From a virus (lineage: Duplodnaviria > Heunggongvirae > Uroviricota > Caudoviricetes): a stretch of 64,000 nt of DNA. The translations under genes and the position numbers were made by a program. The stretch lies in IMG/VR virus record IMGVR_UViG_3300037313_001751, positions 1-64,000 of that record; one strand, 5' to 3'. Positions 11,347 to 49,860 of the stretch are shown here, in pieces. Below the pieces are notes generated by a model. It made no database searches. It worked only from the letters and a program-made list of their open reading frames with translations, and was not told the DNA's origin. Every line of letters starts with the position of its first letter. Positions within the stretch are counted from its first letter, which is position 1.

Positions 11347-11350
11347 CACA

Positions 11351-15595: not shown

Positions 15596-15736
15596 GGATC
15601 GACTGGTGGACAGTTATCGGATGCTGGACTGCGCCGTTGCCAGCACAACGAACTGGATTGATTTTGCGAAGTCTTGGCGCCAGGCCATATCCGAATGTCG
15701 GAGTTTAAGCTATCATCTGAGGATGACAATGTAAAA

Positions 15737-15808: not shown

Positions 15809-15832
15809 GCCTAACCTTGTATCCTTTTCCTC

Positions 15833-16027: not shown

Positions 16028-16084
16028 CCGAACACCTTATGTTGCTTACGCATTATACGATGTTCAAATAGCTAAGCAAACGTC

Positions 16085-16327: not shown

Positions 16328-16372
16328 TAAAATACCTTTCTAAAATGGAGCGGCTCGAGGGATGCGAACTGC

Positions 16373-16600
16373 TTAAGCCCACCTGCGTCGCAACTCGTCC
16401 AGTTCAACACGATAGGACAAAGTCACCAAAGTGGCTGCTTCGTCTGCCGTATCAACTACGGTCTCGCTTACCGATAAAATGGCTCCTTGGCGTGCTTCAA
16501 TACTTTCCATTAATTTATTAATCTGCTCTTCCTTCATAGCACGCAGATCGCCAATTGATCCAATGTGTGGAAATGCTATTACTTTAACTCTAATTGCCAT
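16373..16600 (-). CDS. hypothetical protein
   Basis: 75-aa ORF. Confidence 0.4.
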   Translation of the reverse strand: MAIRVKVIAFPHIGSIGDLRAMKEEQINKLMESIEARQGAILSVSETVVDTADEAATLVTLSYRVELDELRRRWA

Positions 16601-16653
16601 TTAAAGTCCTTAAAAACATGGTCCATAACCGACGGCTTGGCTCCAGGAAACGA

Positions 16654-16729
16654 TGGCACCGGTGGGGAGCATCGACCTCCCAACCTGCGGGTTTGGAATC
16701 CGCTGCTCTACCAATTGAGCTACACCGGC
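16654..16729 (-). tRNA. tRNA-Trp (anticodon CCA)
   Basis: Acceptor GCCGGTG/CACCGGT, D arm GCTC-AATTGGTA-GAGC, anticodon loop TTCCAAA, encoded CCA; ORF-track entry 16610..16804 overlaps it and is spurious. Confidence 0.65.
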
Positions 16730-16809
16730 ATAATGTTTGGTTCTGGAGGTTAGCCGCGCGCTAACTCTTCGCTTAATGCCACCCATCGGTCGTAGGGTGT
16801 CCATTTGTT

Positions 16810-16887
16810 TGGTGCCCCCAGTGGGAGTTCAACCCACCTTTCTGCCTTGAGGGGGCAGCGTTCTCAGCGACCATAAACTATGGGGGC
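16810..16887 (-). tRNA. tRNA-like element with non-canonical loops (anticodon loop CCCUCAA: C33, nominal anticodon CUC)
   Basis: Perfect acceptor GCCCCCA/TGGGGGC with discriminator A and encoded CCA; D arm GTTT-(11 nt)-GAAC; anticodon stem CTGCC/GGCAG; T arm GTGGG-TTGAACT-CCCAC lacking the canonical C56. Confidence 0.4.
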
Positions 16888-29455: not shown

Positions 29456-30700
29456 TCAACCTGTCTTTAATAGTTCCTTATATTCCTTAATAAGGATGGG
29501 GTTCTCTAAGCCATTTATCACATCTTTGCTAATGCGAACTTTTACAACGCCTTCGTCGCGTAGTTCGGCTAAAGTGAATTGAATTGGTAATAAACGCTTC
29601 TCAAGCACACCGCGCAAACCCCGCGCACCGGTCTTACGCTCGATTGCTCGTTTGGCGACTTGGCGCAGCGCGTCGGCATCAAATTCGAGCTCGATTTTTT
29701 CTAATTGGAAAAGTTTTGCAAATTGCTTAATTAGTGCGTTCTTCGGCTCCTGGAGGACTTGGACTAGCTGGTCTTCGGTCAATTCATCAAGATGAACTAT
29801 AATCGGCAGGCGCCCAACTAATTCAGGAATAAGGCCGTATTTGACCAAATCTTCCGGTTCGACTTGAGGAAGATAATTGTTTTGCTTCTCCTCACTTACT
29901 GCCTCAAGCCGTGAGCCATATCCAATCTTATTTTTATTCTTATTGAGTCTCTCACCGATTATTTCATTTAAGCCAACAAATGCGCCTCCAACGATAAAAA
30001 GGATATTCTTCGTGTTAACAATGATGGTTTCAGCCTGTGGATGTTTGCGGTTGCCTTGCATTGGCACACGGACCTCAGTGCCTTCGATGATTTTGAGGAG
30101 CGCCTGCTGAACGCCTTCTCCAGACACGTCCCGAGTGATTGACACGTTATCGCCTCGTTTGGCTTTCTTCTCTATTTCATCGATAAAAATAATCCCTCGC
30201 TCAGCTTTCGACACATCGCCATCGGCAACTTGCACCAACCTGGTAATGATTGTTTCGACGTCATCGCCAACATAGCCGGCTTCGGTAAGAGAGGTTGCGT
30301 CAGCAATAGTGAATGGAACATCTAATAGTTTTGCTATACTTTGTGCAATCAGCGTTTTTCCAGATCCCGAAGGGCCGAGTAATACCAGATTAGACTTTTC
30401 TAGCTCCACATCGTCAATAATAGGAAATTCGAGCCGCTTGTAATGGTTGTTAATTGCAACACTCATCACCATCTTGGCTTCTTCCTGGCCAATAACATAG
30501 TCGTCCAGGAATTTCATAATTTGCTTGCAAGTTGGAACCTTGTTTTTCTTCTGTGTTACGGCACCTTCTTTAAGAATCTCTGAGCACACCTTAATGCAAT
30601 CGTCGCAAATATATACGTCAGGGCCAGCGATCAATTTTTTGACCTGCGTTTGCTGCTTAGCGCAGAACGAACAGCTCAGAGTCTTTTTTGATTCGGTCAT
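29456..30700 (-). CDS. clpX: ATP-dependent Clp protease ATPase subunit ClpX
   Basis: N-terminal zinc-binding CSFCAKQ...CDDC; Walker [11 protein letters not shown]; Walker [10 protein letters not shown]; GYVGDDVE pore loop; sensor and C-terminal ClpX regions. Confidence 0.9.
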
Positions 30701-30708: not shown

Positions 30709-31332
30709 CTATGACATTGGATAGTAAGTAGAACCACTAGCATCCGCCACAAAATTTACCGTGATTTTGGACTCAGCGGCTGCAATATCATCCGCAAGCG
30801 GTCCAGCATTTACTGCAATCAAACTCTCCCCATAATGATAATTCGGATCTGAGAAGGCGGTCGGGTCGATAACTGGATAATTGTCTACATTTACGTTTGC
30901 CACCAATGCGCGTGCGATCCACCGCTTTATGGCATCATCATTATAAAGCATTTCTCCTGGATTCAGTTCGTCATATGCATATAGATAGTCTGGGCGGTCA
31001 TATACAACTGTAAAATCCATTGTAGTTGCTTGCGCTGAGGCTGTCGCTCCTGTTGCAGAGACATTCTTTATTGCGAAAGGCGTCACCGTGCTTGCCAGTT
31101 GGCTAACAATTGAGTTCCACCGGATGTTGCCACGGGCTCTCGCTGCTGCGTTCGCTGCGTTGGTCGGCCATCCGCTTGACATATCATATGTGCCGCCTGA
31201 ACCTGGAGTTATATAGCTATTAGCCGGCAGATTGTCTATAAAGCCATCACCTGGTGCACTTGCTGTAACGCCAGCTATGCTGACAGTGTAAAACAAAAGA
31301 TCTTGCGACATACAGCCACCTTTCAAACACAA
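30709..31332 (-). CDS. hypothetical protein
   Basis: 207-aa ORF, Ala/Asn-rich. Confidence 0.5.
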   Translation of the reverse strand: MCLKGGCMSQDLLFYTVSIAGVTASAPGDGFIDNLPANSYITPGSGGTYDMSSGWPTNAANAAARARGNIRWNSIVSQLASTVTPFAIKNVSATGATASAQATTMDFTVVYDRPDYLYAYDELNPGEMLYNDDAIKRWIARALVANVNVDNYPVIDPTAFSDPNYHYGESLIAVNAGPLADDIAAAESKITVNFVADASGSTYYPMS

Positions 31333-31425: not shown

Positions 31426-33345
31426 ATGACTACGCTCACAAAAGACGACCTTACAGACAATATTCATCAATTGGCCTATCGTGACCATGCACGGCTCAAG
31501 ACCGAAATGTACTTGGGATCACGCAGCCTGCATACCCAATCGATCCTTTGCTTGCCAGATTCTGACAGCTTGTTTATCAATATCAACGAGTCCTTTAACG
31601 CTACTGGAATGCAATTAGAGGAGATTAGTTGGGTTCAGGCCTTGGCTACTTACGTGCGTGAGATCATTGATAATGGTCTTGATGAATTTGCACACGGTTA
31701 TGGATCACGACTCGACGTTACCTACAACGCTGCAACTTGCGAAATTACCGTGAAGGATGACGGGCGAGGCATACCGATTGATCATGCAGTCGCAGCTTTA
31801 ACCCAACCTATGACTGGCCGTAATTTTGGAGAAAGAAAGGAGATTGTTGGCACAAATGGATATGGCGCATCAGCTGTTTCGAACACATCGGAATATTTCG
31901 ATTTCACAGTGTGTCAAACTGGCAAGAAACTAGAATGTTCGATTCGAGAAGGCGAGCCGAAAATAGGCGGCAAACTCGAGATCTCTGAACCTCAAGTGAC
32001 TAGCTATAGAGGCAGCCACACCGGCACGATGATTTCCTTCAAGCCCAGCAAACATGTATTTAGACATTTGACATTGCCGGACAGGTTTTTGAAAACCCGG
32101 ATGTTTGAGATTGCAGTGTGCAACCCACATTACAAAATTTATTACAATGGAGAATTGTTAAAAATTAAATCACGGATAGAAAGCTCTCTCTTTCCTAACC
32201 GAAAAACGATCCGCATAGAAGTAGTTAATTCGCCGATGAAATTTAAGAGCATCTTTTTCCTCGTGCCTAAATTTGTCGAATCAGGCGATCACTATCATAC
32301 GCTTGTTAACAACATATTCGCCCATAATGGCGGCATCCACATTGACACATTTAAGCGTGTTTTTCCAGGGTCTTTACTACGAGCATTAGAGAGGGAGTCC
32401 AAAAGGCGCAAACTGGTGCCAAACCGTTCTGATATCAGCGAAGGATTGCTTGTCTACAACATAACCACTATGCAACAGCCTGATTTTGATAGCCAGTCGA
32501 AATCACGGCTCATCAATGAGGACGCTGGCGACATCATACGTCGGTTTTTCGAAAATGACGATTTCATCAAATCCTTTATAAAGGAGAATGCCGAATGGAT
32601 TGACGAGATCTATCAACGCTGCGCAGACCGGACGCAAAGGCGTGATGCAAGTGAGCTATCGAAATTAAGCAAGAAGGTTCTTCGCAACAAAGTGCCTGGA
32701 TTGATGGATGCCACAGCTTCCCGCCGAAATGATTGCATCCTTTTCCTTGCAGAAGGTGATTCGGCCATTGGCGGCATGGCAAGTGTGCGGAATCCCGAAA
32801 TTCATGGCGGCCTTGCGTTGCGCGGCAAAATCATGAATGTAAATGGTGAAAACCCGAAGAAAGTTTTGGATAATAAATGCCTCACCGAGATTATGAATTC
32901 GATTGGCCTTGTGATTGGCCAGGAGGCTAAGCGTCATAATTTAAGATATGGCAAGGTGTACCTTGCAACCGATATGGACCATGACGGCTTCAATATTGCT
33001 GCGTTGTTGATAAACTTTTTCTACACATATTGGCCTGAATTGTTTAACCCTGAACAACCACCATTTGTCTACGTATTTCAAACGCCGTTCGTTATCGCAG
33101 AAAAAGGCCGGCACAGAAAATACTGGTACGCGCATGATTACAACGGTTTCGATCCTAAGGATTATGTTGGCTGGTCAATCACTCGGGCAAAAGGCTTGGG
33201 AACCCTCAGCGAATTAGATTGGGAACATTCGATGCATAATCCGATTTTGATGCCGATAGTTGAAGACGGTAATTTGCATGATTCTTTGGATCTGATCTTT
33301 TCGCCAAAGAAGGCCGATGCAAGGAAACAGTGGATTGGACTCTAA
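31426..33345 (+). CDS. type II DNA topoisomerase, ATPase + Toprim subunit (T4 gp39/gp60-like, GyrB/ParE-related)
   Basis: GHKL ATPase motifs (EIIDNGLDE, VKDDGRGIP, GTNGYGAS); Toprim ILFLAEGDSA...; DMDHDGFNI acidic motif. Confidence 0.85.
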   Translation: MTTLTKDDLTDNIHQLAYRDHARLKTEMYLGSRSLHTQSILCLPDSDSLFININESFNATGMQLEEISWVQALATYVREIIDNGLDEFAHGYGSRLDVTYNAATCEITVKDDGRGIPIDHAVAALTQPMTGRNFGERKEIVGTNGYGASAVSNTSEYFDFTVCQTGKKLECSIREGEPKIGGKLEISEPQVTSYRGSHTGTMISFKPSKHVFRHLTLPDRFLKTRMFEIAVCNPHYKIYYNGELLKIKSRIESSLFPNRKTIRIEVVNSPMKFKSIFFLVPKFVESGDHYHTLVNNIFAHNGGIHIDTFKRVFPGSLLRALERESKRRKLVPNRSDISEGLLVYNITTMQQPDFDSQSKSRLINEDAGDIIRRFFENDDFIKSFIKENAEWIDEIYQRCADRTQRRDASELSKLSKKVLRNKVPGLMDATASRRNDCILFLAEGDSAIGGMASVRNPEIHGGLALRGKIMNVNGENPKKVLDNKCLTEIMNSIGLVIGQEAKRHNLRYGKVYLATDMDHDGFNIAALLINFFYTYWPELFNPEQPPFVYVFQTPFVIAEKGRHRKYWYAHDYNGFDPKDYVGWSITRAKGLGTLSELDWEHSMHNPILMPIVEDGNLHDSLDLIFSPKKADARKQWIGL

Positions 33346-34711
33346 CACAATGACTTGGACAAGTATGCAACCGAGCGATTATATCCTAACAACCTCACAT
33401 GGATTTTCCGTCTACGCGTGTGAATCGCGTGCCATTCCGAAAGTAACTGATGGACTAAAAGATTCGCAGCGCAAAATGCTATGGATAATGAGGAACAAGT
33501 CCGACAAACTTAAAACAATATCTTTAGCAGGAGAGTGCATCAGTAGTAACCTATACCTTCATGGCGACCAGTCGGCATCTGACACAATTTCGATGATGGC
33601 AGCACCGTTTTGCAATAATGTTCCCTTGTTCGACGGTATCGGATCATTCGGGACGAGGACTGCGCCCACCGGCTGGGGCGCAGCACGTTATACATACGTT
33701 AAGCGCGGCAAAGCTGCTCAGCACCTCGTATACCCGGACCTTGACATTATTCCGTTAAAGGAAAATTATGATGGCTCAGCAATGGAGCCGATACATTTCT
33801 TGCCGATCATCCCGTTGGTGCTTCTAAACGGAATATCGGGGATAGCCGTTGGCTATTCAACGGACATCTTATCCCGGTCACTACAAGACCTAATTGATGC
33901 CTGCATAAGCGTCCTTGACAACAAAGTTCCAGCAAGCCTACGCCCTGCCTATACCTACCTCAATTGCTCTGTTGCTCCAATTGGCCTAAACGTATGGGAA
34001 TTTTCGGGCAAAGTAGCGATAATTGATACGTCAACAATCCGTGTTTATGAACTGCCTCCTGAACTAACACTTGAAAAATTCAAAGAGCGGCTGAATGAAT
34101 TCGAGGATAAAGGTCACATCAATAGCTATACCGACCGCTCAACTAAAGCAATCGATATAACAATCAAATTTCCTCGTGGTTCAATTAGGGATTGGACGGA
34201 TGAACAAGCTGTTGATTTCCTCAAACTAAAGCAGAAAAAAACTGAGCGAATAGTTGTTATTGATTGGAGTAATGATAGGATTCGACAATATCCATCAGCT
34301 GAACAACTTGTTGCTGATTTTGTCAACTGGCGGCTTAAATGGTACACGACACGATACGAAAGTAAGCTTAAAAGCGCTTCTTATGAACTCCAGTTTTGGC
34401 GGGGAATCAAGCTCTGCTTTGAGAAGGATATGCCGTCCCGTTTGCTGGCGCGCATTAACAAAAAAGAAGTTGAAGCTGACGTGTTCGACTTGACGAAATC
34501 ATTGGCCCTGGATGAAAAGCAGGTTGAACGGATTGCTGCGTTACCAACGTATCGCTGGTCACGAGAGGGTTTGGAGTTGGCCGAAGTAACTATTGATGAA
34601 CTCCAGCGCAACACTGCTGAATACAACTTGATTTTGTCTGACGAAAAGGCCATTAGGTCCATCTACAAGAAGGAACTAATGGCCCTTAAAAAGGTAAAGC
34701 TAGCTACCTAG
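33317..34711 (+). CDS. type II DNA topoisomerase, DNA breakage-reunion subunit (T4 gp52-like, GyrA-N-related)
   Basis: ESRAIPKVTDGLKDSQRKMLWIM (GyrA RALPDVRDGLKPVHRR pattern); active-site region GAARYTYVK; overlaps upstream subunit by 29 nt. Confidence 0.85.
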   Translation: MQGNSGLDSNTMTWTSMQPSDYILTTSHGFSVYACESRAIPKVTDGLKDSQRKMLWIMRNKSDKLKTISLAGECISSNLYLHGDQSASDTISMMAAPFCNNVPLFDGIGSFGTRTAPTGWGAARYTYVKRGKAAQHLVYPDLDIIPLKENYDGSAMEPIHFLPIIPLVLLNGISGIAVGYSTDILSRSLQDLIDACISVLDNKVPASLRPAYTYLNCSVAPIGLNVWEFSGKVAIIDTSTIRVYELPPELTLEKFKERLNEFEDKGHINSYTDRSTKAIDITIKFPRGSIRDWTDEQAVDFLKLKQKKTERIVVIDWSNDRIRQYPSAEQLVADFVNWRLKWYTTRYESKLKSASYELQFWRGIKLCFEKDMPSRLLARINKKEVEADVFDLTKSLALDEKQVERIAALPTYRWSREGLELAEVTIDELQRNTAEYNLILSDEKAIRSIYKKELMALKKVKLAT

Positions 34712-36410
34712 TTGCAAACACGCAGAATGATGCGCCATTCTGATGATGCGGTTCGTCCAAAAATACATCGGTACTGAACCCCTCATCAGATAGGATGTTG
34801 AGGATATCTTCCTTCCTCAACCATTTGCTGCCCTCTGCAGAGCCGCCGCAAAATCCAGCCCATTCCAGGGCATGCAGGTACTGTTGACCATACATGGCAA
34901 CTGTTCTACCATGTCTTGTAGTTACTTGTTCAGGCGAAAAATTAAACTTATTCCGTTGCTCGTGCTGCTCCATTACAGCGGGATCGAAATAGTGGGTCCA
35001 CAACCCTATAGCGCGCGCAACCCTACACATATTTTGCAGGACAGACACGGGATCCGTCATATGGTACAACACCCCAGACGCTAGCAGGAAATCATAATGG
35101 CTGGTGGGGTTTTCGAGATATTTGGTGAAGTCGCCGAGCAAAAATGTTGCCCCGTCGAGTTTTAGATGATTCTTTACGACCAAACAGCGTTGCCAGGCTC
35201 TCACATTTGACTCGATGCCAAGCACGCGTGCGCCACGTTGTGTCATCATATATGTGTGCCCAGCCTCAAGTGGGCCTAGTTCTAACACATGTTTGCCAAC
35301 AAAGCCACCAAGCCGCTTCTCGAAACCAATAATCCTTTGGTCATTGAAAAGTTCAGCATAGCCGGTATCAGCTAGTCCTGGAACCTTAGAACTCCACTCG
35401 CCTTCAAAGACACGAACTGCATTTTGTGGCGCTGGCTTCCAATCAACATATCTGGGAATTGCCGGTGCTTTTTCAATTTGTGGCTTCGGTAATGTCACTG
35501 GCTCGTCGAGAACATGTTGTTCAATATCGAGGAGAGTCGGCTCACCGGCGAGAAGCCAGTCTATTTGTGCCTTCTGCTCTAACAGCGTGCGTTTTAAAAG
35601 ACGCATTCGCCTTCTATTGAACTGGTCGTCCGAATAAGCTTGTGCAATGCGCTTTCCTCCTCGCCTAAGCCACACGTAGAATTCACAACCAGTTGCATCA
35701 GTGGACCGATCAACCCTCAGGTCGATTTTTCCGAGGCGCGATAGCTCTAACACTATAAGTTCGAACGATGCCGGTGTGAAATGCCATGCATGTAAGTCGT
35801 GATATTGATCGTCATTTGCATAAAGGGCGAGTTTTTCTGCTGCTTCGCCAAAAGTATGGATGAAATTAAGTGATTGTGTTGGCCATTGACCCCACGTAAT
35901 GCTGCCTCCGCTTGCTACAGCGTATCCATAATGCTGGAAAGCTGCACTTGGGTTGTGGCGCGACGACCCCTCAGCCCTAAGCACATCGCCAGTAGTGGTA
36001 ATAGGTTGGAATGCATCGAAGATATAGCGTTTATCGGGAACAGCAAGGATTACGGTGCCATCTTCTTTTAGCAACTGACCAGCACTGTTAAAAAACCCGA
36101 TCAAATCGGTTACATGTTCAATGACATGACTGGCGATAAAAGCATCAAACTGTCCATGCAGCTCTACCGGCACTACGTCGCATATCGCACCCTGTTGCCA
36201 AACGTAATCAACATCCTCGATGTTCGAAACATCAACATTCGCGTGGCCGGCATATTTTTCGATGAGTCCATTCCGATCTGTGTGATCAACAACCTTCGTA
36301 TTCCAGCCGTCGCGTTTTGGAGCGATCGGACTTGTGCTTGGGCCGATTTCGAGGAGCAGCGCCGCGTCGCGATGTAAACGTGACAGCAATGTATCTGCGC
36401 GTGATGACAT
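34704..36410 (-). CDS. tandem class I SAM-dependent methyltransferase-domain protein
   Basis: 568 aa; two Rossmann MTase-like regions (…AFIASHVIEHVTD…DGTVILAVPD and …VLELGPLEAGHTYMM…DFLLASGVLYHMTDPVS). Confidence 0.65.
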   Translation of the reverse strand: MSSRADTLLSRLHRDAALLLEIGPSTSPIAPKRDGWNTKVVDHTDRNGLIEKYAGHANVDVSNIEDVDYVWQQGAICDVVPVELHGQFDAFIASHVIEHVTDLIGFFNSAGQLLKEDGTVILAVPDKRYIFDAFQPITTTGDVLRAEGSSRHNPSAAFQHYGYAVASGGSITWGQWPTQSLNFIHTFGEAAEKLALYANDDQYHDLHAWHFTPASFELIVLELSRLGKIDLRVDRSTDATGCEFYVWLRRGGKRIAQAYSDDQFNRRRMRLLKRTLLEQKAQIDWLLAGEPTLLDIEQHVLDEPVTLPKPQIEKAPAIPRYVDWKPAPQNAVRVFEGEWSSKVPGLADTGYAELFNDQRIIGFEKRLGGFVGKHVLELGPLEAGHTYMMTQRGARVLGIESNVRAWQRCLVVKNHLKLDGATFLLGDFTKYLENPTSHYDFLLASGVLYHMTDPVSVLQNMCRVARAIGLWTHYFDPAVMEQHEQRNKFNFSPEQVTTRHGRTVAMYGQQYLHALEWAGFCGGSAEGSKWLRKEDILNILSDEGFSTDVFLDEPHHQNGASFCVFATR

Positions 36411-36413
36411 CCC

Positions 36414-39400
36414 TTACAATCCCTCCCAGGGCTTCGTGCGGCGTGTTGGCGTTGCTAGTTTGAACGTATGATCGACGTAGTCGAAATTTGGATTATAGAA
36501 TGGATCCATATCTAACTGGCGACCCCATTTTTGCCGCATATACGCCTGGGACCTACGATAGCGATGTATCTTATCGGGGTCTTCATCCGATCCTCGGCTC
36601 GCTGACTCGTAGTGGAACAATTCAGCAAAGGGCGTCCATACAACTTTTAGTCCGTGTTCTCGCACACGCAAACAAAAATCGACATCGTTATATGACACGG
36701 GTAAATTGTCAGCATCAAGCCCTCCCAGTTCAAGGTACAGTTCTTTTGTTACAGCAAGACATGCGCCGGTCACAGCACTAACCTCGCGTGTCAGTGCATA
36801 CTGCCCTACGTAACCACCGCTATTTTCATCATCATAGTGTCCAAAATGTCCTGCAACACCATCGGTGCCGACTCCAACAACAACGCCAGCATGTTGAATC
36901 CGACCATCGCCGTATAGCAGTTTTGCGCCGACAACACCCACATCTGGCCTAGATACGATCGACACCATCTCGCGCAACCAGTTTCGATCTTTGACCTTTG
37001 TGTCATTGTTAAGCAAGACTAAAATATCGCCACTGCTTTCCTTAGCTCCGAAATTGTTGATCGCCGAATAATTGAAAGGTCCGGGGTAAGAGACCACCCG
37101 GATATTGGACGTCTTAGAATATTGCTCAAGTAGGAATAGCGCACTCTCCTCCTTGCTGCCATTGTCGACAATAACCACCTCAAAATTATCATAATCAGTA
37201 TCTAGGACACCACCAATACACTGCGACAGCAAGCTAGCCCTGTCCCGTGTCGGTATAATAATTGAAACTTTTGGCGTTGGCACTGGCAGTGGCCAAATAA
37301 CACGGCTCCATTCAGCAGCCAACTTCGCCGGCGCAACTTTTGCACCTTTGATATGTTTACTGTGTAGGTAGTCGGCAATTGCTCGCCGCGCAGCGGCAAC
37401 ACACTGGTCCAGTTGCGACTGAGAAAACGAGCCCTTTTCGGGGTCGAGACGCCAGTGATACAGCACGGCTGGAATATGATAAATTTTGTCCGTTTTCGCG
37501 GCACACCTCAGCGTGAGATCATAATCCTGGCTGCCGTCAACAATGCCTTCCCTGAAGCCGCCGACTGATTCGACCAACGACCGCCTATAAACACCTAGGT
37601 GGCTGAACATATTGTGGCCGAACATAAGGTCAATGTTGAAATCTGGCTTGAAATACGGCTGGAGGCGTCTCTTGTCCGGCCCCATCCGATCTTCGTCGCT
37701 GTAGATCATATCGAGGCTTTTGTTATCATTAAGCGCCACTACAACTTCATACATTGCGGTCTCTGCTAAGAAATCATCATGGTCCATCAGCAGGATGAAC
37801 TCACCCTTTGCTAATTTTATCGCAGAGTTACTCGCAGCGGCTATATGGCCGTTTGTGGAACGCCATGTAACTTTGATCCGCTTATTTTTCGATGCCTCCC
37901 TCCGAATAGCTCTCCGTGTCTCTTTGTTGGTTGATGCGTCGTCAGCGATGCACAATTCCCAGTTGTCATATAGCTGTGCTTCGATACTTGCGATCGCGTC
38001 CCTGAGATAGCTTGGCTTTGTATTGTATGTTGGCATAACCACGGAAATTAGTGGCTTGTATTGCAGTTTGGCGATGTGGCTCCTTATTAGCTCGCGATCT
38101 CGTGAAGTCAGCGTATCGTTGTGCCGCACCCAATTATCGTAATCTGTCGGCTCAAAACCACCCCGTGCCGGCTCTTTCCTTCTGTCGCCTATTAGTGACG
38201 TCAGCCGGCGTCGCACATTCACTGGAACATATGATCCTAACACTCGCACCGGCGCAGTAGCCCGCCACATTGTTGAGTTCTTCAACATGTCGCGTTCAGC
38301 CTGCACACTGCTAAGCTGCGCCTGCATAGCGTGCAGGTGGTTCCGCAATGCGTTGATCTCTTCGACATCGGTCACAACTTGAACCGGTGACTGCGCCTGG
38401 GGCGCGGCAAGTCTCAGAGCCTCAGACAGCGCAGCAGACAGCCTCGCTTTCTCAGCGTTTGCGACGGATGCGATGGAGGTCAGACGACCAATTTCATTTC
38501 GCAAAGTGTCTGTCTCATCGACATGTTTGTTTGTAGCAGCCTCTAGTTGCTGAATACGGCCGACGCTTTTCTGAAAGCTTATTCGCTGTTCGTCTAGCTG
38601 GTTCGATAAGAGCGCAATCTGCGTTTCCATTTGTTCTGATTGTGCTTGCGCAGTCGTCATTTTTGCAGTAAGCGCGTCGATTTCTTGCAGTCGTGTAGCA
38701 TCGGCGACATTGTGATCAGCTACTACCTTAGCTAATTCTGCGTGTTTATCACTTAACTCTTGCTGCTTTTGATTGAGCTGCACTTGTAGGCCTGCTAACT
38801 GACTACGCAGGGACGAAAGGTTTAACCGCTGGCGAATTAATTCGACAAACCCATGCAGCAAATCGCGGGTTACCGGCCCCTTTTGCAACAGGAAAGCGTG
38901 TGGCGCTATAAACGATGCATCAAACGTTGTTACGGGTGCAAACCCAACGTCTGCAAATTTGTTAAGCCACCAAATTGTTGGCTTAACATTTATGTGGGTC
39001 GGTTCTATGATGTCGATTGGTGAAGATGAAAACAGCACGCGTGGTGCCGCATCGGCCATATTGTAAATTGCCTGTAGCGCCTCTTCTTCGCTCATATGTT
39101 CAAGCACCTCGATGCAGACGATCAAATCGAAGATGCCATTAAATCGATCTGTTAAACTCCCTTGTTCCACAAACGGCCGTACATCTGGCCTTACCTGGGA
39201 CACAGCAAAATTGGAAATATCCCTTCCATACGCTTCAATACCCCGATCCCATAATGCCTCCACCAAAAACCCATGTGCACAGCCAGCGTCAAATACTGTT
39301 TTCGGTGCGAGACTGCGCACAATCTCATCGGCTATGCCGCCAAAAAACAACCCCCATTCGGGCTCTTCGCGAGCATAGGGTTTTTGCCCGCAATGCGTCC

Positions 39401-39455
39401 GATAATAATCAGCGTTATAAGTCTCGTCCACGTCGTATCCAGTTTGTTCGTCCAT
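36414..39455 (-). CDS. multidomain glycosyltransferase: N-terminal SAM-MTase + coiled-coil + two family-2 glycosyltransferase (GT-A) domains
   Basis: 1013 aa; MTase motif I VFDAGCAHGFLVEAL; GT2 #1 ISVVMPTYNTKPSYLRDAIASIEAQLYDNWELCIADDAS; GT2 #2 VSIIIPTRDRASLLSQCIGGVLDTDYDNFEVVIVDNGS; DxD-type acidic motifs present. Confidence 0.8.
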   Translation of the reverse strand: MDEQTGYDVDETYNADYYRTHCGQKPYAREEPEWGLFFGGIADEIVRSLAPKTVFDAGCAHGFLVEALWDRGIEAYGRDISNFAVSQVRPDVRPFVEQGSLTDRFNGIFDLIVCIEVLEHMSEEEALQAIYNMADAAPRVLFSSSPIDIIEPTHINVKPTIWWLNKFADVGFAPVTTFDASFIAPHAFLLQKGPVTRDLLHGFVELIRQRLNLSSLRSQLAGLQVQLNQKQQELSDKHAELAKVVADHNVADATRLQEIDALTAKMTTAQAQSEQMETQIALLSNQLDEQRISFQKSVGRIQQLEAATNKHVDETDTLRNEIGRLTSIASVANAEKARLSAALSEALRLAAPQAQSPVQVVTDVEEINALRNHLHAMQAQLSSVQAERDMLKNSTMWRATAPVRVLGSYVPVNVRRRLTSLIGDRRKEPARGGFEPTDYDNWVRHNDTLTSRDRELIRSHIAKLQYKPLISVVMPTYNTKPSYLRDAIASIEAQLYDNWELCIADDASTNKETRRAIRREASKNKRIKVTWRSTNGHIAAASNSAIKLAKGEFILLMDHDDFLAETAMYEVVVALNDNKSLDMIYSDEDRMGPDKRRLQPYFKPDFNIDLMFGHNMFSHLGVYRRSLVESVGGFREGIVDGSQDYDLTLRCAAKTDKIYHIPAVLYHWRLDPEKGSFSQSQLDQCVAAARRAIADYLHSKHIKGAKVAPAKLAAEWSRVIWPLPVPTPKVSIIIPTRDRASLLSQCIGGVLDTDYDNFEVVIVDNGSKEESALFLLEQYSKTSNIRVVSYPGPFNYSAINNFGAKESSGDILVLLNNDTKVKDRNWLREMVSIVSRPDVGVVGAKLLYGDGRIQHAGVVVGVGTDGVAGHFGHYDDENSGGYVGQYALTREVSAVTGACLAVTKELYLELGGLDADNLPVSYNDVDFCLRVREHGLKVVWTPFAELFHYESASRGSDEDPDKIHRYRRSQAYMRQKWGRQLDMDPFYNPNFDYVDHTFKLATPTRRTKPWEGL

Positions 39456-41040: not shown

Positions 41041-41655
41041 GTGAGGGCGATAACTGCTGCGCTTGTATTGTCAGTGCTGGCACCATCTGCGGTCGCTACC
41101 AATAGCAGTCACCAGCACCAGCACCGACACCACAATGGTATTGTTCACAAAGCACCGAAGACTCCTGGCACCAACATAAATGACTTGGTACGTGCCATAT
41201 CTAAGAGCCGCGAATTTCCACTAGATCCAACGCTGAGGAAACTGCCTATAAAGCAGCGGCGAAATGCAACATGTCTCGCCCTCGCTATATATCACGAGGC
41301 GAGGTCTTCGTCTGAGCCAGATAAAAAAGGCGTAGCACATGTAGTGGTAAATAGGCTCAAATCGGGTGGTTTCGGGCGCACAGTGTGTGACGTTGTCAAT
41401 GAGCGGTTGCCGCATGTCACTATCCCGCAATTCTCCTGGCTGTTAGAGCACCAGAAAGCGTTGCTTCCAACTGAGGATGACGCGTGGCTTGAAGCACAAC
41501 AGATCGCGCTATCAGTGCTAAACTCCCATTCGGAAGATCCGTCAAAGGGGTCAACATATTTTTGGGCCCTCAACATGACAAAACACCAATCGTGGATGCG
41601 CACGGGGAAAGCATACTACCACATAGGCAGCCACGTGTTTATGGTTGGGCGCTAA
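41041..41655 (+). CDS. secreted cell-wall hydrolase, SleB family (Hydrolase_2); candidate endolysin
   Basis: Signal peptide MRAITAALVLSVLAPSAVA; LALAIYHEARSSSEPDKKGVAHVVVNRLKSGGFGRTVCDVVNE...QFSW matches the SleB-domain core (IYAEARGE...G..AV..VV.NR........C.VV.Q..QFS). Confidence 0.7.
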   Translation: MRAITAALVLSVLAPSAVATNSSHQHQHRHHNGIVHKAPKTPGTNINDLVRAISKSREFPLDPTLRKLPIKQRRNATCLALAIYHEARSSSEPDKKGVAHVVVNRLKSGGFGRTVCDVVNERLPHVTIPQFSWLLEHQKALLPTEDDAWLEAQQIALSVLNSHSEDPSKGSTYFWALNMTKHQSWMRTGKAYYHIGSHVFMVGR

Positions 41656-42095
41656 ATCTCAACGACAGCGCTGTTTCCGCTGTGTTCTCGCACCTCTACT
41701 GACTGTACAAAACAACGTCCAGCTGACTGCTGCTGAATGAGCTGGTTGGTGTAGTTGTAGATCAGTTCTGCAAACTTCTCGCAACCGGTCCCTGCAACAA
41801 TCCGTAAATCAATTAAACCTCGTTCGCTCAGCTCCTTAAAAACCTCCAATTCTGGGTCGTCCTCTGCCACACAGCATGTGTGGTCAAACATATCTTTTAG
41901 CCATTCCTTAATCTCCTTAAGTCCACCAAAGTCGACGACCCAATTTCGCTCGTCAAGGTATGTCGCTCCAAAAACGAATTTTACACTCAAGGCATAGCCA
42001 TGGATTAGTCTACAATGGCTAGTGGCACGCCACTGCCGGAATGAGCATGACAGTCCTTCATTATGATCATATGTTTTCGTCGATAGATACTTCAT
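41652..42095 (-). CDS. queD: 6-pyruvoyl-tetrahydropterin synthase / QueD-like
   Basis: 147 aa; CRLIHGY...VVDFGGLKEIKEWLKDMFDH fits the PTPS/QueD zinc-site and DF..LK pattern. Confidence 0.6.
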   Translation of the reverse strand: MKYLSTKTYDHNEGLSCSFRQWRATSHCRLIHGYALSVKFVFGATYLDERNWVVDFGGLKEIKEWLKDMFDHTCCVAEDDPELEVFKELSERGLIDLRIVAGTGCEKFAELIYNYTNQLIQQQSAGRCFVQSVEVREHSGNSAVVEI

Positions 42096-44716: not shown

Positions 44717-45841
44717 TTAGTGTACATCGTCAGCGGCAATGGCTTCGTTAAAGCGCAGTCTCACCGTGGTGCCACGGCCTTCACGTGTTTCGAGATATAG
44801 CCATCCACCGCTCTGCACCATAAAACCATTCACCATTGGAAGACCTAGCCCGGTTCCCCTGCCGTCTTTCGTCGTAAAAAATGGATCCAATGCGTGATCT
44901 GCTGTAAACCGATCCATCCCGCGACCGTTATCGGTTACTGTCAACTCAACAAACATTGAGTCTTCGCGAATGCCGTCCACCAACTGTGTTCGAACGACTA
45001 TCACACCCTTCCCCTCAATTGCATCAGATGAATTTTTTACGAGGTTTAGCAACGCCAATTCTAACTGTGCAGTATCAACCTCGATCATTAATGGAGAGTT
45101 TGACAGCGCAAACCGAATGTTGACGCCCTTTTTTACTGTTTGGCTTATCATACGGTCGAATCCCTTAATAACTTGATTAAGATCCACGATTGCTGTTTTT
45201 GGCGCTTGTTTGCGGGCTAGTGATAGCATTTGGGTTGCAAGTACGCTCGCCTGTTCGAAACCCCAGACTACACGCTCAAGGTTCCTCCTTTGCTTTTGGC
45301 TTACTGCCTCTTTCTCTGCGGCGTAAGCGGCATGCGACACAACTTGAATAATATTGTTAAACTCGTGGCCGATGCTTGCCGCTAATGTTCCCAGAGCCTT
45401 AAGGCGCTCTGTGTGGATTCTATCTTGCTCAGTCATTTTTCGTTGACTCACATCGACAACGTTAGCGAAGAAGTAGGTAATTTGGCCTGCATCGTCACAC
45501 ACAGGCGCAACCGTTACAAGGCACCAAACAGGAGTCCCATTTGCGGTGTAGAGAAGCAGTTCTTCTGCACAACATGCTGAACGGCCAAGCGCGTCTTCCA
45601 AGCGATCAAGATTGCATCTGTTTGTCTCGACTCCTGCCAGGAGTGACAACGGCTTGCCATTGATATCGGCCTGAGCATAGTGGAATAGGTGGCAAAATTC
45701 ATCACTACTATGTACTATCGGCTTAGATGGGTGGTTTGGATCAATCAGCGCAAAATTGAGGCCATTCAGTTGCTTTATTATACGAGGGAAATCAACATTT
45801 GTGCTGCAAACTGACTGCCGCAGTATGCTGGTTGTATGCAT
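44717..45841 (-). CDS. cytoplasmic sensor histidine kinase (PAS + HisKA + HATPase_c)
   Basis: H-box LAASIGHEFNNIIQVV; N-box LLNLVKNSSDAI; G1 VTDNGRGMD; G2 GRGTGLGLPMV; N-terminal PAS-like region; no TM segment. Confidence 0.85.
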   Translation of the reverse strand: MHTTSILRQSVCSTNVDFPRIIKQLNGLNFALIDPNHPSKPIVHSSDEFCHLFHYAQADINGKPLSLLAGVETNRCNLDRLEDALGRSACCAEELLLYTANGTPVWCLVTVAPVCDDAGQITYFFANVVDVSQRKMTEQDRIHTERLKALGTLAASIGHEFNNIIQVVSHAAYAAEKEAVSQKQRRNLERVVWGFEQASVLATQMLSLARKQAPKTAIVDLNQVIKGFDRMISQTVKKGVNIRFALSNSPLMIEVDTAQLELALLNLVKNSSDAIEGKGVIVVRTQLVDGIREDSMFVELTVTDNGRGMDRFTADHALDPFFTTKDGRGTGLGLPMVNGFMVQSGGWLYLETREGRGTTVRLRFNEAIAADDVH

Positions 45842-45967
45842 AACACATTCCCGCCAATGAACTGACTTCGAGAGTGCTATGGCTCAGTGTTAAACACAAA
45901 ACTGTGTGGGCGCAAGTTATTTCTGCCATTCTTGTGCCAGCCATAGCCGCTTTTGCTGCTGTCCCAA

Positions 45968-46504
45968 TCAATTTGACAATTTCGACAGCACAAGGTCCGC
46001 CATAAGGCTCCGGTCAAGAATGAGATAACGGTTGGTTCTCACAACAAACCGTGCTTGTGGCACCCGACCACAGCTGGCACAAAGAGGCTGAACAATTATT
46101 GATCCGTTCACTTTTATCTCTTTCACAACAGCAACCACCAATTCCGCTACGGAATTGGTCCCTGGATTAAGGACCTTTGAAAACGTTATCACTGATCCAA
46201 CCTGGATATTCTTCCCAAGGATATCCTTCACAACTGGAGGCTTATCGGTTATTACGAGCCTTGTCTCACCTCTATAGTCGGGTAGATATTCGAGATATTT
46301 TCCTTTGAGCCAAAACTGACGGTAGCCGCATATTTTAAGCCTGAATACATGGTTGCTTAAGGTAACGTGTTTGACTTCCACAACCTGTGCTATCGAGCCC
46401 CGCTTCTTACCATTGCAAATGCGCACATATTGGTTGCCCTCTACGACACGCTTTTTGACTGCTTGCACATCCTGATAGAAACGTAGAATCATTTCCGGCC
46501 TCAA
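45968..46504 (-). CDS. hypothetical protein
   Basis: 178-aa ORF between the kinase and receiver genes. Confidence 0.45.
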   Translation of the reverse strand: MRPEMILRFYQDVQAVKKRVVEGNQYVRICNGKKRGSIAQVVEVKHVTLSNHVFRLKICGYRQFWLKGKYLEYLPDYRGETRLVITDKPPVVKDILGKNIQVGSVITFSKVLNPGTNSVAELVVAVVKEIKVNGSIIVQPLCASCGRVPQARFVVRTNRYLILDRSLMADLVLSKLSN

Positions 46505-46630
46505 CCTGTAATTCCTGTTGCTGCTCTAGCGAGCATAAAACATGTTAACTCAGCACACACGATGTTTTTACACTTGCCGACAATTATTTGTGTGTTGAGA
46601 ATTTGAATGCCTGAATACGATCAAAAAATG

Positions 46631-46668
46631 CCAATAAAAAACTGCCTTTAAATTCCTTTAAAGGCAGT
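46631..46668 (-). terminator. rho-independent terminator downstream of the receiver gene
   Basis: Minus strand: CTGCCTTTAAAGGAATTTAAAGGCAG hairpin followed by TTTTTTATT. Confidence 0.55.
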
Positions 46669-46689
46669 CAAATAGCGCTTGTGGAAAGC

Positions 46690-47076
46690 CTATCCTTTTC
46701 TGCTTTCGATTACCTCCCGGATTTTGGTATTAAGTTTTTTCGGCATATAGGGTTTGGTTATTATGTCTACCGCCACATAGTCGCTTTCGAGTTTTAGGAT
46801 CTCCTCGGAATATCCCGTCGTCAATAGGATTGGCACTGACGGCCGCACTTTGGCCAGGTGTTTCGCAACCTCAAAGCCTGATACGTTGTCGGGCATCTTT
46901 ACATCGGAGAAAACAATGTCCAGCCTCTGATCCAGATTATCAATGATCGTTACCGCTTCGACCCCGTTATTTGCAGAGACGACCTCATAGCCAAACTCCT
47001 CTAAAAGCTCCTTTGACATTTGATGTAATGGCTCATCGTCCTCAACAAGAAGCACAATATATGGTGGTTGGTCCAC
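46690..47076 (-). CDS. single-domain response regulator (CheY-like receiver)
   Basis: 128 aa; acidic pocket LLVEDDE; phospho-acceptor region DIVFSDVKMP; T at LLTTGYS; no output domain. Confidence 0.85.
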   Translation of the reverse strand: MDQPPYIVLLVEDDEPLHQMSKELLEEFGYEVVSANNGVEAVTIIDNLDQRLDIVFSDVKMPDNVSGFEVAKHLAKVRPSVPILLTTGYSEEILKLESDYVAVDIITKPYMPKKLNTKIREVIESRKG

Positions 47077-47158: not shown

Positions 47159-47470
47159 TTATGCTGAGACCAGCTCTGTGCAGGTTGAAATTTCTGGCCT
47201 GCCCTTTATAAGGAAGCCTCCATGTTCATAAACCCAGTTAAGTGCCCGCTCGTTGGCTATGTCCACTGACTCAGGCACATCGAATGCATTAACAACGGTA
47301 ACGTATGACTTTGGCCAGTCATAAACGTGGTAATACCTGAAACCAGGCAAAGATTCCACAATCGGCAAGAAGTTCTTCACCGAGTCAACTAATTGCTGTT
47401 GGCAGCCGTGCCTCACCTTGTATCGACGGATCCCAATAAACATACCTGCTTTCCTTGTTAGTCGCACCAA
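47159..47470 (-). CDS. hypothetical protein
   Basis: 103-aa ORF. Confidence 0.45.
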   Translation of the reverse strand: MVRLTRKAGMFIGIRRYKVRHGCQQQLVDSVKNFLPIVESLPGFRYYHVYDWPKSYVTVVNAFDVPESVDIANERALNWVYEHGGFLIKGRPEISTCTELVSA

Positions 47471-47543
47471 ACAGAGTTAGATGCGGACATCCTGTTTAAC
47501 GCGTGATGCTCGGCTAAGTTGTTCACACACAAATAAACAAAAT

Positions 47544-47568
47544 GGATCCTGTGTGCCCCACAGGATCC
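47544..47568 (-). terminator. stem-loop terminator
   Basis: GGATCCTGTG-TGCCCC-ACAGGATCC, 10-bp perfect stem; T-rich tract follows on the minus strand. Confidence 0.5.
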
Positions 47569-47756
47569 ATGTTTAGTAAAGCAACCTCAAGGCTGAACGC
47601 CTTTGTCGATGCAGCGCAAATCAGTTGACGCTGGTTTGCGCTCCCACGGACCTGACCCTTTGGCTGCCAGCACTCGACACGTTTGGCTACCGTAGGCTGC
47701 GTGCGAAGACTATAGGCTTGCCACGTAGTTAAGTCAATGCTTCTTTATTATAGCGG

Positions 47757-48677
47757 TTAAACACCAGTCTGGGTGTTTGTAATGGTAGCTACGTCCCTTG
47801 TTGCTGGAGCTCGAAGGTTTGACGCAAGTGCATCTTGGCGCTCGTTGACAAATCGGTTGGTAATTGAAGCTGCATAAGTATTGCCTTGAATGCTCGCAGT
47901 CCTCGCGTCATAAATTGTATTAACGAAGTCGCTTCCAGACATTGACGAGATATTTTTGCCTTGTAACGCTGCTGCCATTCCATTAGCGGCGCCGGCTGGC
48001 CCTGCGTGGACAGCCCAGCTATAAAATGCCTGCTGCACACCCAAAGGCTGTGCATTTATATCCACCCCTGTTGTTGCAAGAAGCTTTGCAACTGCTGGAT
48101 CATAATGGGTGGCTTGGATGAAATCGTCCTGATCTTGTGCAAACTGTGGATTGTTAGCAGCCTCATTTTTCCATGCAGCAACAAAGGTTGGATCACCTGT
48201 CGCAGCGGCTTGCGCGCCGCCTGCGTTGACTAAGTTTGCGTAAGCAGCTGGATCTGTTTTCTGCAATTGATTGAGGAAATTATTCATTGTGCCAGGTCCT
48301 GTGGCTATTTGGTACGCCCCGTATGATGGGCCGCCTTTATCACCAGGATTATTGCCAAACGCACCATAGTCACCAGTGCTTTCATATTTTTTTGAAAGTC
48401 CGCCAATTGACGGATCGACTGCTCGATTTGGCGCCGCTATGTTTGCACCAAGGCCAGTCGCATGCTGGCTTCCAGCCGCAGTATAACCACCACCAGGTCC
48501 AGCATTGCCAGCGCCACCGGGACTGCCATAAGCCGGCACTGTCCCGCCTCTACTCCGATCTTGGCCTATCGGCGTGCCATCAGGCGCTTTACCTTTCGAC
48601 GTGTCAGGTGCTGGAGACAGTTCTGCGGCAGAACCAGCAGCACCACCTGAGGATCCGCCACCACAATTGCACGCCAT
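47757..48677 (-). CDS. glycine-rich virion-associated protein with putative lytic transglycosylase (SLT-like) motifs
   Basis: 306 aa; N-terminal G/S/A-rich low-complexity region; KKYESTGDYGAF...GGPSYGAYQIATG (ES catalytic and G-x-x-Q motifs) and FYSWAVHAGPAG (AYN-G-like); directly upstream of the PAAR gene. Confidence 0.45.
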   Translation of the reverse strand: MACNCGGGSSGGAAGSAAELSPAPDTSKGKAPDGTPIGQDRSRGGTVPAYGSPGGAGNAGPGGGYTAAGSQHATGLGANIAAPNRAVDPSIGGLSKKYESTGDYGAFGNNPGDKGGPSYGAYQIATGPGTMNNFLNQLQKTDPAAYANLVNAGGAQAAATGDPTFVAAWKNEAANNPQFAQDQDDFIQATHYDPAVAKLLATTGVDINAQPLGVQQAFYSWAVHAGPAGAANGMAAALQGKNISSMSGSDFVNTIYDARTASIQGNTYAASITNRFVNERQDALASNLRAPATRDVATITNTQTGV

Positions 48678-48691
48678 ATGTCGTCTCCGAT

Positions 48692-48982
48692 CTACTCAAA
48701 AAATACATCTTGGCTTCCAGTTGCAACCCGACTTCCACAGGTTATCGGGTCATTCATTCGGCCCACCTGCTTGCCGTTTGCAAATACCGTTTGTGATCCC
48801 GAAGCGAGCATGCCGTCATGGCAGCCTTTTTTATTGCAACAATGCACGGCCCACTTATCCCCTTGTCGATGCGCTCCACGATTATTAAAGAACACGTCGG
48901 GGCTGCCTTGCACCGCTTGTCGGCTCGGAAAACAATCGTGCCCGCTGCAGGTGTCATTGATCCTTGCGACGCCTGGCATCAA
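48692..48982 (-). CDS. PAAR-repeat protein (spike tip; T4 gp5.4 / T6SS PAAR-like)
   Basis: 96 aa; ARINDTCSGHDCFP...GSPDVFFNNRGAHRQGDKWAVHCC...GCHDG...SGSQTVFANGKQVGRMNDPITCGS...GSQDVFF, three PAAR-type repeats. Confidence 0.8.
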   Translation of the reverse strand: MMPGVARINDTCSGHDCFPSRQAVQGSPDVFFNNRGAHRQGDKWAVHCCNKKGCHDGMLASGSQTVFANGKQVGRMNDPITCGSRVATGSQDVFFE

Positions 48983-49860
48983 CTAACCGCCGCCAACACG
49001 CCGACAGCAGCGCCGGTTCCCACTGCGCCCATTATTGCTTTGAAGCATGGATCTTTTGGCAATATGCTGAGGAGTTGTGCAAGACCAAGTCGCGCCGCAT
49101 CGATAAGACTTTTTATCAACTTCATAATTTCGGCCTCAATCATGGCTATTAATGATTGAATCAGTCCCATCACATAAGCTATCGCATTTTGTATTTCAGC
49201 CAGGGCGTCGTTAATGACGCTCATTACTTTTGCAATCGCCGCGTTGATTTTGGCCATAATAGCGCTGCCTTTGTCAAGTAAGCTTCCAAGGAAGTCCTTC
49301 AAGCCCAAACATGGATCAAGCAGACTGCCAATTGCAGTTGCAAGCCCAAGAGCAGTTTGCACCATTCCTACTATGGACGGCAGATTTGAAATTAATCTAT
49401 CTGAATGATCTTGAAAGTCATCCATTGTCGTAGCGGCTTGATCTAGGTTGGCGGTCATTTCAGGCATTGCGCTCTGCCATAGTGCAACATCGGCCTGCTG
49501 CTGCAATGTTGGCTGGTAGCCTGGCTGTCCTGGAATTGACGACGTTGATCCAGTGCCGGTTTGGGTCAACGATGGCACTGGCGTGCCGACAATAACAATT
49601 GTTGCATAGCGCTCACTTAAACGGGTGTTAACCTCAGCTAAGCCGGTCTGGGCTTGGCTGATATCACAGGACCGAGGATTGGCCAGCACAGCAGAATAGG
49701 GATTAGCAGTTGGCAATGTCATAATTGCTTCACGATACTGTGCTACAACGTCAGCTGGGTAGTCACCACCCATCATAGTCATTAACCTAATCGTAGATGG
49801 GTCAAAATTTGGATTGTAGGTTGGATTGGCAAGGGCTTCGGTGTTAGGCGTTGTCACCAT
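48979..49860 (-). CDS. hypothetical structural-module protein
   Basis: 293 aa; 4-bp overlap with the PAAR gene; A/L/I-rich helical C-terminus. Confidence 0.5.
   Translation of the reverse strand: MVTTPNTEALANPTYNPNFDPSTIRLMTMMGGDYPADVVAQYREAIMTLPTANPYSAVLANPRSCDISQAQTGLAEVNTRLSERYATIVIVGTPVPSLTQTGTGSTSSIPGQPGYQPTLQQQADVALWQSAMPEMTANLDQAATTMDDFQDHSDRLISNLPSIVGMVQTALGLATAIGSLLDPCLGLKDFLGSLLDKGSAIMAKINAAIAKVMSVINDALAEIQNAIAYVMGLIQSLIAMIEAEIMKLIKSLIDAARLGLAQLLSILPKDPCFKAIMGAVGTGAAVGVLAAVS

Follow-up and report, generated by a model that had tools for sequence, protein, structure and literature searches.

Does a phage own a working two-component system and, if so, what would its kinase sense and on what would it act? 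This question is raised by two genes in the IMG/VR virus record IMGVR_UViG_3300037313_001751, of which positions 1 to 64,000 were analysed (hereafter, the window). The minus strand encodes a histidine kinase of 374 amino acids (aa) at 44717..45841 and a stand-alone receiver (single-domain response regulator) of 128 aa at 46690..47076. An initial annotation had proposed such a phage-borne pair, and the open reading frames (ORFs), at matching coordinates, the Pfam domains and the catalytic motifs were all found. Together with a 94-aa protein upstream of the receiver and an ORF between the two genes (ORF178, or ORF174 when read from its probable start), the pair forms a cassette. The components are ordinary two-component parts; the interest lies in their ownership by a phage and in the fate of the kinase sensor, a degenerate LOV domain of the PAS fold (hereafter, ex-LOV). 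Judging from sequence comparisons, we consider it probable that a working but light-blind kinase phosphorylates the phage's own output-less receiver (His159 to Asp58), which would then act via protein contacts.

The kinase comprises the ex-LOV sensor, dimerisation/phospho-acceptor (DHp) helices (residues 140–215, 45197..45424) and a catalytic ATP-binding (CA) domain with the N, G1, F and G2 boxes (residues 220–366, 44744..45184), as delineated by comparison with Pfam, NCBIfam and the PDB. The HATPase_c domain was matched with an E value of 1e-17 (65 bits against a cut-off of 26.4; residues 256–366), and the motifs ASIGHEFNN with His159 (codon 45365–45367), NLVKNSSD, DNGRGMD and GRGTGLGLP were all found. 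When the kinase was aligned with 13 homologues, H159, N266, N270, D304xGxG308, the FFTTK F-box (F321–K325) and the GTGLGL of the G2 box were invariant, as were E160, N162 and N163 of the H-box, and the whole ASIGHEFNN stretch was invariant across the four PAS-bearing phage kinases. Thus, the H, N, G1 and G2 boxes claimed for this protein held up on alignment, with the phosphorylatable His and the ATP-lid residues in place. Its predicted solubility was also upheld, since no membrane segment was detected (maximum Kyte–Doolittle 19-residue window, 1.21). The best solved match to the DHp and CA domains was the CckA core (PDB 5idj and 5idm; 5idj, E 2e-25, residues 144–362), which has the H(D/E)FNN H-box in common with the phage kinase; the H-box aligned with those of 5idj and ZraS. 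Unlike CckA, the phage kinase has neither a transmembrane part nor a fused receiver, and its scores lay far below the equivalog cut-offs for CckA (1000 bits). No HWE_HK or HisKA_2 phospho-acceptor domain was matched in Pfam at E <= 0.01, and classification with hidden Markov models pointed to a HisKA/CckA-like rather than an HWE/HisKA_2 subfamily, with a HisKA score below the gathering cut-off. These results suggest a class I (HisKA-type)-like core that appears catalytically intact.

The sensor (residues 28–135, 45437..45760) was matched by the Pfam PAS_9 domain (E 3e-13, residues 35–133) and, in LOV structure alignments, by phototropin LOV2, YtvA and YF1 with E values of about 1e-15 to 6e-23 (YF1, 6e-23). 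NCBIfam LOV-kinase models, including NF052306 and YtvA_fam, were also matched; NF010077 and NF052306 matched the LOV-like part of the kinase only. Cofactor residues were read from an alignment of AsLOV2, the four phage versions and 28 cellular homologues (AsLOV2 numbering). The flavin contacts N449, C450, R451, Q454, R467, N482, N492 and Q513 correspond in the window kinase to P, L, S, A, E, L, C and V, respectively, and the same losses were seen in the HMMER alignment to YF1. The adduct Cys of GxNCRFLQ is replaced by Leu within the motif GKPLSLLAG, whereas the nearest cellular kinases have the canonical GRNCRFLQG. C450, Q454, N482 and Q513 were present in every cellular homologue in which the region aligned; single exceptions occurred at N449, R451 and N492, and R467 was kept in most. 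In all four phage versions the adduct Cys is absent, and the other three are as degenerate at the flavin contacts as that of the window. The PAS-core end motif is kept as DVS in place of DVT, and the linker from ex-LOV to His159 is of the same length as in cellular LOV kinases. The PAS-like sensor of the initial annotation was therefore right in its fold; on the structure matches and residue comparison, however, it is not a generic PAS domain but a LOV-derived domain that has lost its flavin site. A structural or regulatory role of ex-LOV is likely. The case shows what can become of a photoreceptor kinase in the possession of a virus: the chromophore site is lost, and the catalytic core and partner interface are kept. 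The domain would also provide a naturally occurring ‘dark’ LOV scaffold that has no flavin but is still joined to a kinase. Seven cysteines occur in its 135 residues; two of them, C91 (codon 45569–45571) and C106 (codon 45524–45526), do not vary among the four phage versions, and C106 takes the place of Asn492, a flavin-binding residue of AsLOV2.

The receiver was matched by Response_reg over residues 8–120 of 128 (E 8e-20, 71.4 bits against a cut-off of 30.2). Its phospho-site residues comprise the acidic pocket E12-D13-D14, D58 (codon 46903–46905), T87 and K108-P109; D13, D58, K108 and P109 were invariant relative to the cellular partner receivers described below. The gene begins with GTG preceded by an AGGAGA Shine–Dalgarno sequence, and its stop codon is followed by a terminator hairpin, with no output domain. 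The acidic pocket, the phospho-Asp context and the lack of an output domain had all been predicted correctly. No second kinase or receiver was detected in the window by tblastn.

The cassette was recovered in four genotypes: the window, a 6,095-bp contig (proteins P0002, P0123 and P0133), L005 and L001/L088. The order 94-aa protein, receiver, ORF174 and kinase was found in the window, L001/L088 and L005; for the 6,095-bp contig it was inferred from the three proteins. L006 and L007 carry identical copies and show the same internal order. In L005, the cassette directly follows a DUF7217-PAAR-lysin module, with the same upstream order as in the window. A metagenome scan with an alignment (A7) yielded one locus only, a second copy of the L001 genotype, and pattern scans of IMG/VR with the kinase, ORF178, A7 and P0136 yielded no close relatives. 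Each of the four genotypes bearing ex-LOV has both the kinase and the receiver. The receiver is 73%–93% identical to the other phage versions recovered, and DHp is the most conserved segment, with 84%–92% aa identity between genotypes. DHp helix 1 and receiver helix 1 are nearly invariant across phage versions. In two-component pairs, these two helices form the docking surfaces; their near-invariance argues for function and would fit a conserved kinase–receiver interface.

Cellular relatives point to the origin of the pair. Scanning a single genome for each species recovered 567 relatives, and the best 40 or so were almost all from Acetobacteraceae, including many lichen-associated metagenome-assembled genomes such as Lichenicoccus, as well as Roseicella and Endosaccharibacter. 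The nearest cellular kinases (ca. 390 aa) showed 35%–41% identity over nearly the full length. Gene calls at two of these loci (L003 and L004) placed the LOV kinase divergently beside a stand-alone single-domain receiver of 121–122 aa, and at approximately 28 of 39 cellular loci tblastn detected a receiver-sized match ca. 270 nt upstream on the opposite strand. These neighbouring receivers were 26%–40% identical to the phage receiver. Moreover, the phage kinase and receiver matched consecutive parts of the 540-position NCBIfam model NF010076/PRK13557 (positions 45–393 and 418–537) and of phrog_5982 (505–846 and 870–988). PRK13557 was the best NCBIfam match of both proteins, with 253 bits for the kinase against a cut-off of 631, which was not reached, and 87 bits for the receiver, followed by the CckA receiver (79 bits).

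The phage kinase has the same domain order, linker length, HEFNN H-box and FFTTK F-box as the PRK13557/NF010076 LOV kinases and the Acetobacteraceae pairs (L003, L004 and L008–L046), and the Acetobacteraceae LOV kinases are likewise partnered with a receiver of ca. 120 aa. In contrast, PRK13557-type kinases keep the Cys and flavin residues that the phage sensor lacks; the Acetobacteraceae genes are divergent neighbours, whereas those of the phage point in the same direction with a phage gene between them; and the guanine–cytosine (GC) content of the phage cassette is 0.47, against about 0.58–0.72 in the cellular LOV kinases. These comparisons suggest that the phage kinase and receiver belong to the alphaproteobacterial LOV-kinase/receiver family of the PRK13557 type, and a joint capture of both genes is plausible. 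Among the phage kinases, whose relationship was judged by identity rankings, the core of a kinase-only protein (P0013) was 52%–55% identical to the others and at most 43% identical to any cellular kinase. Acquisition by the phage appears to be old, given the phage-like composition, the 35%–41% identity to cellular genes and the grouping of the phage kinases.

LovK–LovR of Caulobacter and other alphaproteobacterial systems of a LOV kinase and a single-domain receiver feed the general stress response. The phage pair resembles LovK–LovR in combining a soluble LOV-type kinase with an output-less receiver that could work through contacts with proteins or serve as a sink for phosphate. However, LovK-type kinases (LovK, EL346 and the Brucella LOV-HK type) belong to HWE/HisKA_2 and bind flavin, whereas the phage kinase appears to be HisKA/CckA-like and flavin-less. 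No PhyR, NepR or EcfG genes were seen in the window.

The layout of the cassette bears on how the two genes might be expressed. All genes of this region lie on the minus strand and, therefore, the receiver is upstream of the kinase in transcription order; the initial annotation was correct as to the shared strand, whereas its placement of the receiver downstream was not. Transcription runs from a VgrG3-like C-terminal (chitosanase-like) lysin (48677–47757), the last part of a phage spike module identified with Pfam (DUF7217, PAAR and lysin; 47757..49860) that anchors the position of the cassette, through a terminator-like hairpin (47542..47570; 12-bp stem then TTTGTTTATT) to the 94-aa protein (47159..47443), which ends 82 nt upstream of the receiver. 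A second hairpin with a T-run (46640..46669; 13-bp stem then TTTTATT) begins 20 nt past the receiver stop codon and is followed by ORF178 (45968..46504), the kinase and finally a 388-aa phrog_2319 protein (44537–43371). Both L001 and L005 retain the hairpin and T-run after the receiver; their stem sequences differ through compensating changes, and this covariation is good evidence that the hairpin acts as a real terminator. With this conserved terminator behind the receiver, a single operon for the two genes is improbable; the likely expression units are the 94-aa protein with the receiver and, beyond the terminator, ORF174 with the kinase.

The 94-aa protein shows weak ABM/Dabb-like similarity (Pfam ABM, E 6e-4, below the cut-off) and is conserved directly upstream of the receiver in L001 and L005. 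No homologues were detected in the cellular LOV-kinase loci fetched or in GenBank phages, and the best PDB match (E 0.11) was not significant. It may be a partner protein.

The intervening ORF is not a third signalling component but a resident phage gene. Its probable start is the ATG at 46492, which gives a product of 174 aa. Only four close homologues were found among 5.8 billion proteins, all within the cassette; an exhaustive HMMER search added approximately 20 distant family representatives. Relatives without a kinase or receiver were found in L089/L090, L093 and Atu_ph07 (gp023), as well as in L091, where the gene follows the same DUF7217-PAAR-lysin module. The possibility that it provides a histidine phosphotransfer (Hpt) or output domain was rejected, as the protein consists of β-rich tandem KOW/SH3-like barrels with no four-helix bundle and occurs without the kinase and receiver. 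An initial AlphaFold2 model built from four sequences was too poor to use (predicted local distance difference test score, 51). The search for a phage-encoded Hpt or output partner, carried out on this ORF, thus returned a gene of another kind, and no ChpT-like Hpt protein was seen in the window, though the search was not exhaustive.

A scan for sigma-70 promoters gave no excess over shuffled expectation, and the cassette had no Rfam matches. An 18–19-nt motif, GTAAAAACATCGTGTGTG, lies at 46554–46571 on the minus strand and precedes the ORF174 start by approximately 60 nt. In L001 and L005 most of it is conserved, the flanking intergenic sequence being less so, and no second copy was found in the window. 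This motif could be a phage promoter or operator.

Under the reading that we favour, an Atu_ph07-like jumbo phage would own the cassette as an accessory two-component module. A dimeric cytoplasmic kinase would autophosphorylate on His159, either constitutively or in response to a partner or a cue other than flavin that acts via ex-LOV, and the phosphoryl group would pass to Asp58 of the phage receiver. Because it has no output domain, the receiver would then bind other proteins, or drain or feed phosphate in a host relay during infection. The phosphotransfer between the two proteins, the signal and the target are what we infer from the sequences. A further idea, which we hold only tentatively and judge rather unlikely, is that ex-LOV has been repurposed: the former flavin pocket, in which the two invariant cysteines now lie, might sense the thiol/redox state or a small host metabolite, such that the phage reads host physiology via its own kinase and the output-less receiver then rewires a host phosphorelay or protease adaptor to time infection. 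The case makes it possible to test whether giant phages operate a phosphorelay of their own while infecting and which host process it would affect.

Several observations weigh against this reading. The match to Pfam HisKA (PF00512), which most cellular homologues of the kinase carry, was weak (19.4 bits against a gathering score of 26.9; residues 150–213), and the NCBIfam family cut-offs were missed by both the kinase and the receiver. The receiver scored equally well or better against receivers of Verrucomicrobiota and other loci than against the neighbours of Acetobacteraceae LOV kinases; joint capture thus falls short of proof, as some unrelated loci have receivers with scores just as high. 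Co-expression of the two genes is not assured, since a resident gene and a terminator lie between them. The window covers 64 kb of a probably much larger genome, in which further partners are possible. Finally, a related jumbo-phage contig (NCBI GCA_015689235.1, 185,563 bp; L002, 3290–4174) carries in the same slot after DUF7217-PAAR-lysin a 294-aa kinase core without the PAS domain and with no receiver nearby; no PAS remnant was found upstream of this gene. Retention of the kinase thus does not depend on this receiver, a hint that there are host targets. At several positions that do not vary among the receiver-linked versions, the DHp helix of this core is different.

Some of these points would also be expected if the kinase mainly phosphorylated or dephosphorylated host response regulators, e.g., single-domain ones of the general stress response or cell cycle, and the receiver served as a decoy or phosphate sink for host kinases. 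The kinase core found alone in the same slot, the separate terminator-bounded units and the resemblance of the core to CckA are all consistent with such a hijack of host signalling, as is the role of single-domain receivers as hubs or sinks in Alphaproteobacteria (PMC5964349). However, kinase and receiver occur together in all four ex-LOV genotypes, both interface helices are nearly invariant, and the two proteins match one hybrid-kinase family model end to end. In addition, CtrA boxes were not enriched in the window (1 found against 1.6 expected). We therefore regard a mainly host-directed kinase as possible but unlikely.

Selection on the cassette bears on whether it functions at all. The dN/dS ratio was not computable with saturated synonymous sites (pS 0.72–0.9), and the proportions of nonsynonymous (pN) and synonymous (pS) differences are given instead. 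Across phage genotypes, pN was 0.06–0.12 for DHp, 0.10–0.17 for the receiver, 0.19 for CA and 0.29–0.33 for ex-LOV, the last against a pS of 0.72–0.79. As pN was well below pS in every segment, ex-LOV included, the cassette is under purifying selection. The cassette could nevertheless be a non-functional remnant of captured host genes heading to loss: the cofactor site is gone, neither sensor nor receiver is left in one lineage, and ex-LOV evolves three to five times faster than DHp. Such decay is hard to reconcile with the low pN, with intact frames and all catalytic residues kept in four genotypes despite saturated synonymous sites, with a base composition fully adjusted to the phage, and with the conserved linker length and DVS motif; we give it only a slim chance.

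A narrower target has also to be considered for the receiver, which might be a CpdR-like adaptor that tunes the ClpX unfoldase of the phage and is switched off when phosphorylated via the kinase. A full-length ClpX (NCBIfam, 578 bits against a cut-off of 359) is encoded 15 kb away (29456–30700, minus strand), the CpdR model NF046022 was the third-best NCBIfam match of the receiver, and phages of the Atu_ph07 type carry several Clp genes (PMC6102473). However, the match of 62.7 bits was far below the cut-off of 180, generic receivers score alike, and the cassette has no gene linkage to ClpX. Atu_ph07 keeps its ClpX without the kinase or receiver, showing that ClpX does not need them. No ClpP was found next to ClpX; a 207-aa ORF without a Pfam match (30709–31332) lies between ClpX and the topoisomerase genes described below. 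A CpdR-like role is therefore very doubtful.

The clear LOV homology of the sensor invites comparison with functional blue-light or flavin-redox photoreceptor kinases, such as bacterial LOV kinases or the cysteine-less LOV* proteins, and the initial annotation had included light and redox among the cues that might time the infection. LOV proteins without the Cys are still able to signal via flavin photoreduction (PMC4682037). The LOV* domains are LOV-derived, lack the adduct cysteine and are in some cases attached to signalling outputs, like the phage domain; however, they bind flavin and are defined by the retention of at least nine other conserved LOV residues (Yee et al. 2015, PMC4682037), whereas the phage domain keeps two in the YF1/LOV alignment, the Gly and Leu of GxNCRFLQ. 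Because the adduct cysteine and essentially all flavin-contact residues, including the seven others read above, have been lost, light or flavin-redox sensing by the phage kinase appears very unlikely, and a working photoreceptor is scarcely plausible.

The window is DNA of an Atu_ph07-like (Polybotosvirus-related) jumbo phage, since hallmark genes and synteny were found on both sides of the cassette, the GC content is phage-like and independent contigs share the slot. ClpX adjoins the large and small subunits of a T4-type topoisomerase II (31426–34711, plus strand), in synteny with gp2 and gp4–5 of Atu_ph07, and the best matches of the topoisomerase, at 52% identity, were Sinorhizobium phage Phosso (469 kb) and Agrobacterium phage Atu_ph07 (490 kb). 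A virion structural protein and the DUF7217-PAAR-lysin spike module are also encoded. Most ‘phage’ database matches to kinases and receivers do stem from bacterial DNA, but an origin of the cassette in host chromosomal DNA, a prophage boundary or an assembly chimera can practically be dismissed, because phage genes extend more than 15 kb to either side, in independent contigs of different samples the same slot, from the spike lysin to the phrog_2319 gene, is occupied, and the GC content of the cassette (0.45–0.48) equals the window mean (0.469) and not that of the cellular LOV kinase genes. When 12 kb were searched with megablast, GenBank phages yielded no match, and neither the kinase nor the receiver was found in the cultured relatives Atu_ph07 and Phosso.

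Complete pairs had been described as uncommon in phages, a claim that stands for cultured phages and needs qualification for uncultivated ones. Among 50,697 GenBank phage records searched by tblastn with the kinase and receiver, no credible homologue was found; weak matches were at most 33% identical, and the 15 that were inspected or identifiable by record name were bacterial or unverified contigs. One of the records concerned is Microcystis phage MaAM05 (MW495066.1, 225848–234570; 274 kb), in which a ‘sasA’ kinase lies among rnhC, coaE and aspS; this region looks like bacterial chromosome rather than phage. Phrase searches of a literature library for phage- or virus-encoded histidine kinases, response regulators and two-component systems found no paper. 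In IMG/VR, by contrast, 25 viral contigs carried kinases of the same broad type, 24%–33% identical to that of the window. Most appear to be fused to a receiver, a receiver match lying right after the kinase, and Pfam confirmed this for two (L107 and L111). Three are on contigs of 250–308 kb (L107, 308 kb; L111, 250 kb; L119, 253 kb), and one of these three hybrids has several PAS domains. L107 (7596–9113) lies among ORFans and a LAGLIDADG-endonuclease-domain protein, and L111 (6084–9191) lies beside DUF5131 genes. PHROGs also holds such kinase families (phrog_5982). These huge-phage hybrids are phage-borne HisKA/HATPase kinases of the same broad family; they are fused, whereas the kinase and receiver of the window are separate genes, with an ex-LOV sensor and a fixed slot in the Atu_ph07-like lineage. 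These results suggest that huge phages repeatedly carry sensory kinases as a so far undescribed cargo. Phage-borne kinases thus exist and are essentially undescribed; what is new is the split, ex-LOV version in a fixed slot, a well-defined case that recurs in a jumbo-phage lineage under purifying selection and has a traceable cellular ancestry in a LOV kinase and receiver.

Other genes of the window were observed in passing. Ten tRNA genes (Ser, Cys, Gln, Met twice, Asn, Arg, His, Trp and Glu) are scattered among small ORFs at 174–16887, all on the minus strand. Two large modification-type proteins are encoded in tandem at 34704–39455 (minus strand), one of 568 aa with two methyltransferase domains and one of 1013 aa in which a methyltransferase is fused to two family-2 glycosyltransferase domains. 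A gene for a PTPS/QueD-like enzyme (41652–42095, minus strand) overlaps by 4 bases, tail to tail, with that for a SleB-type cell-wall hydrolase (41041–41655, plus strand), and the related 185-kb contig also has a PTPS gene in its syntenic region.

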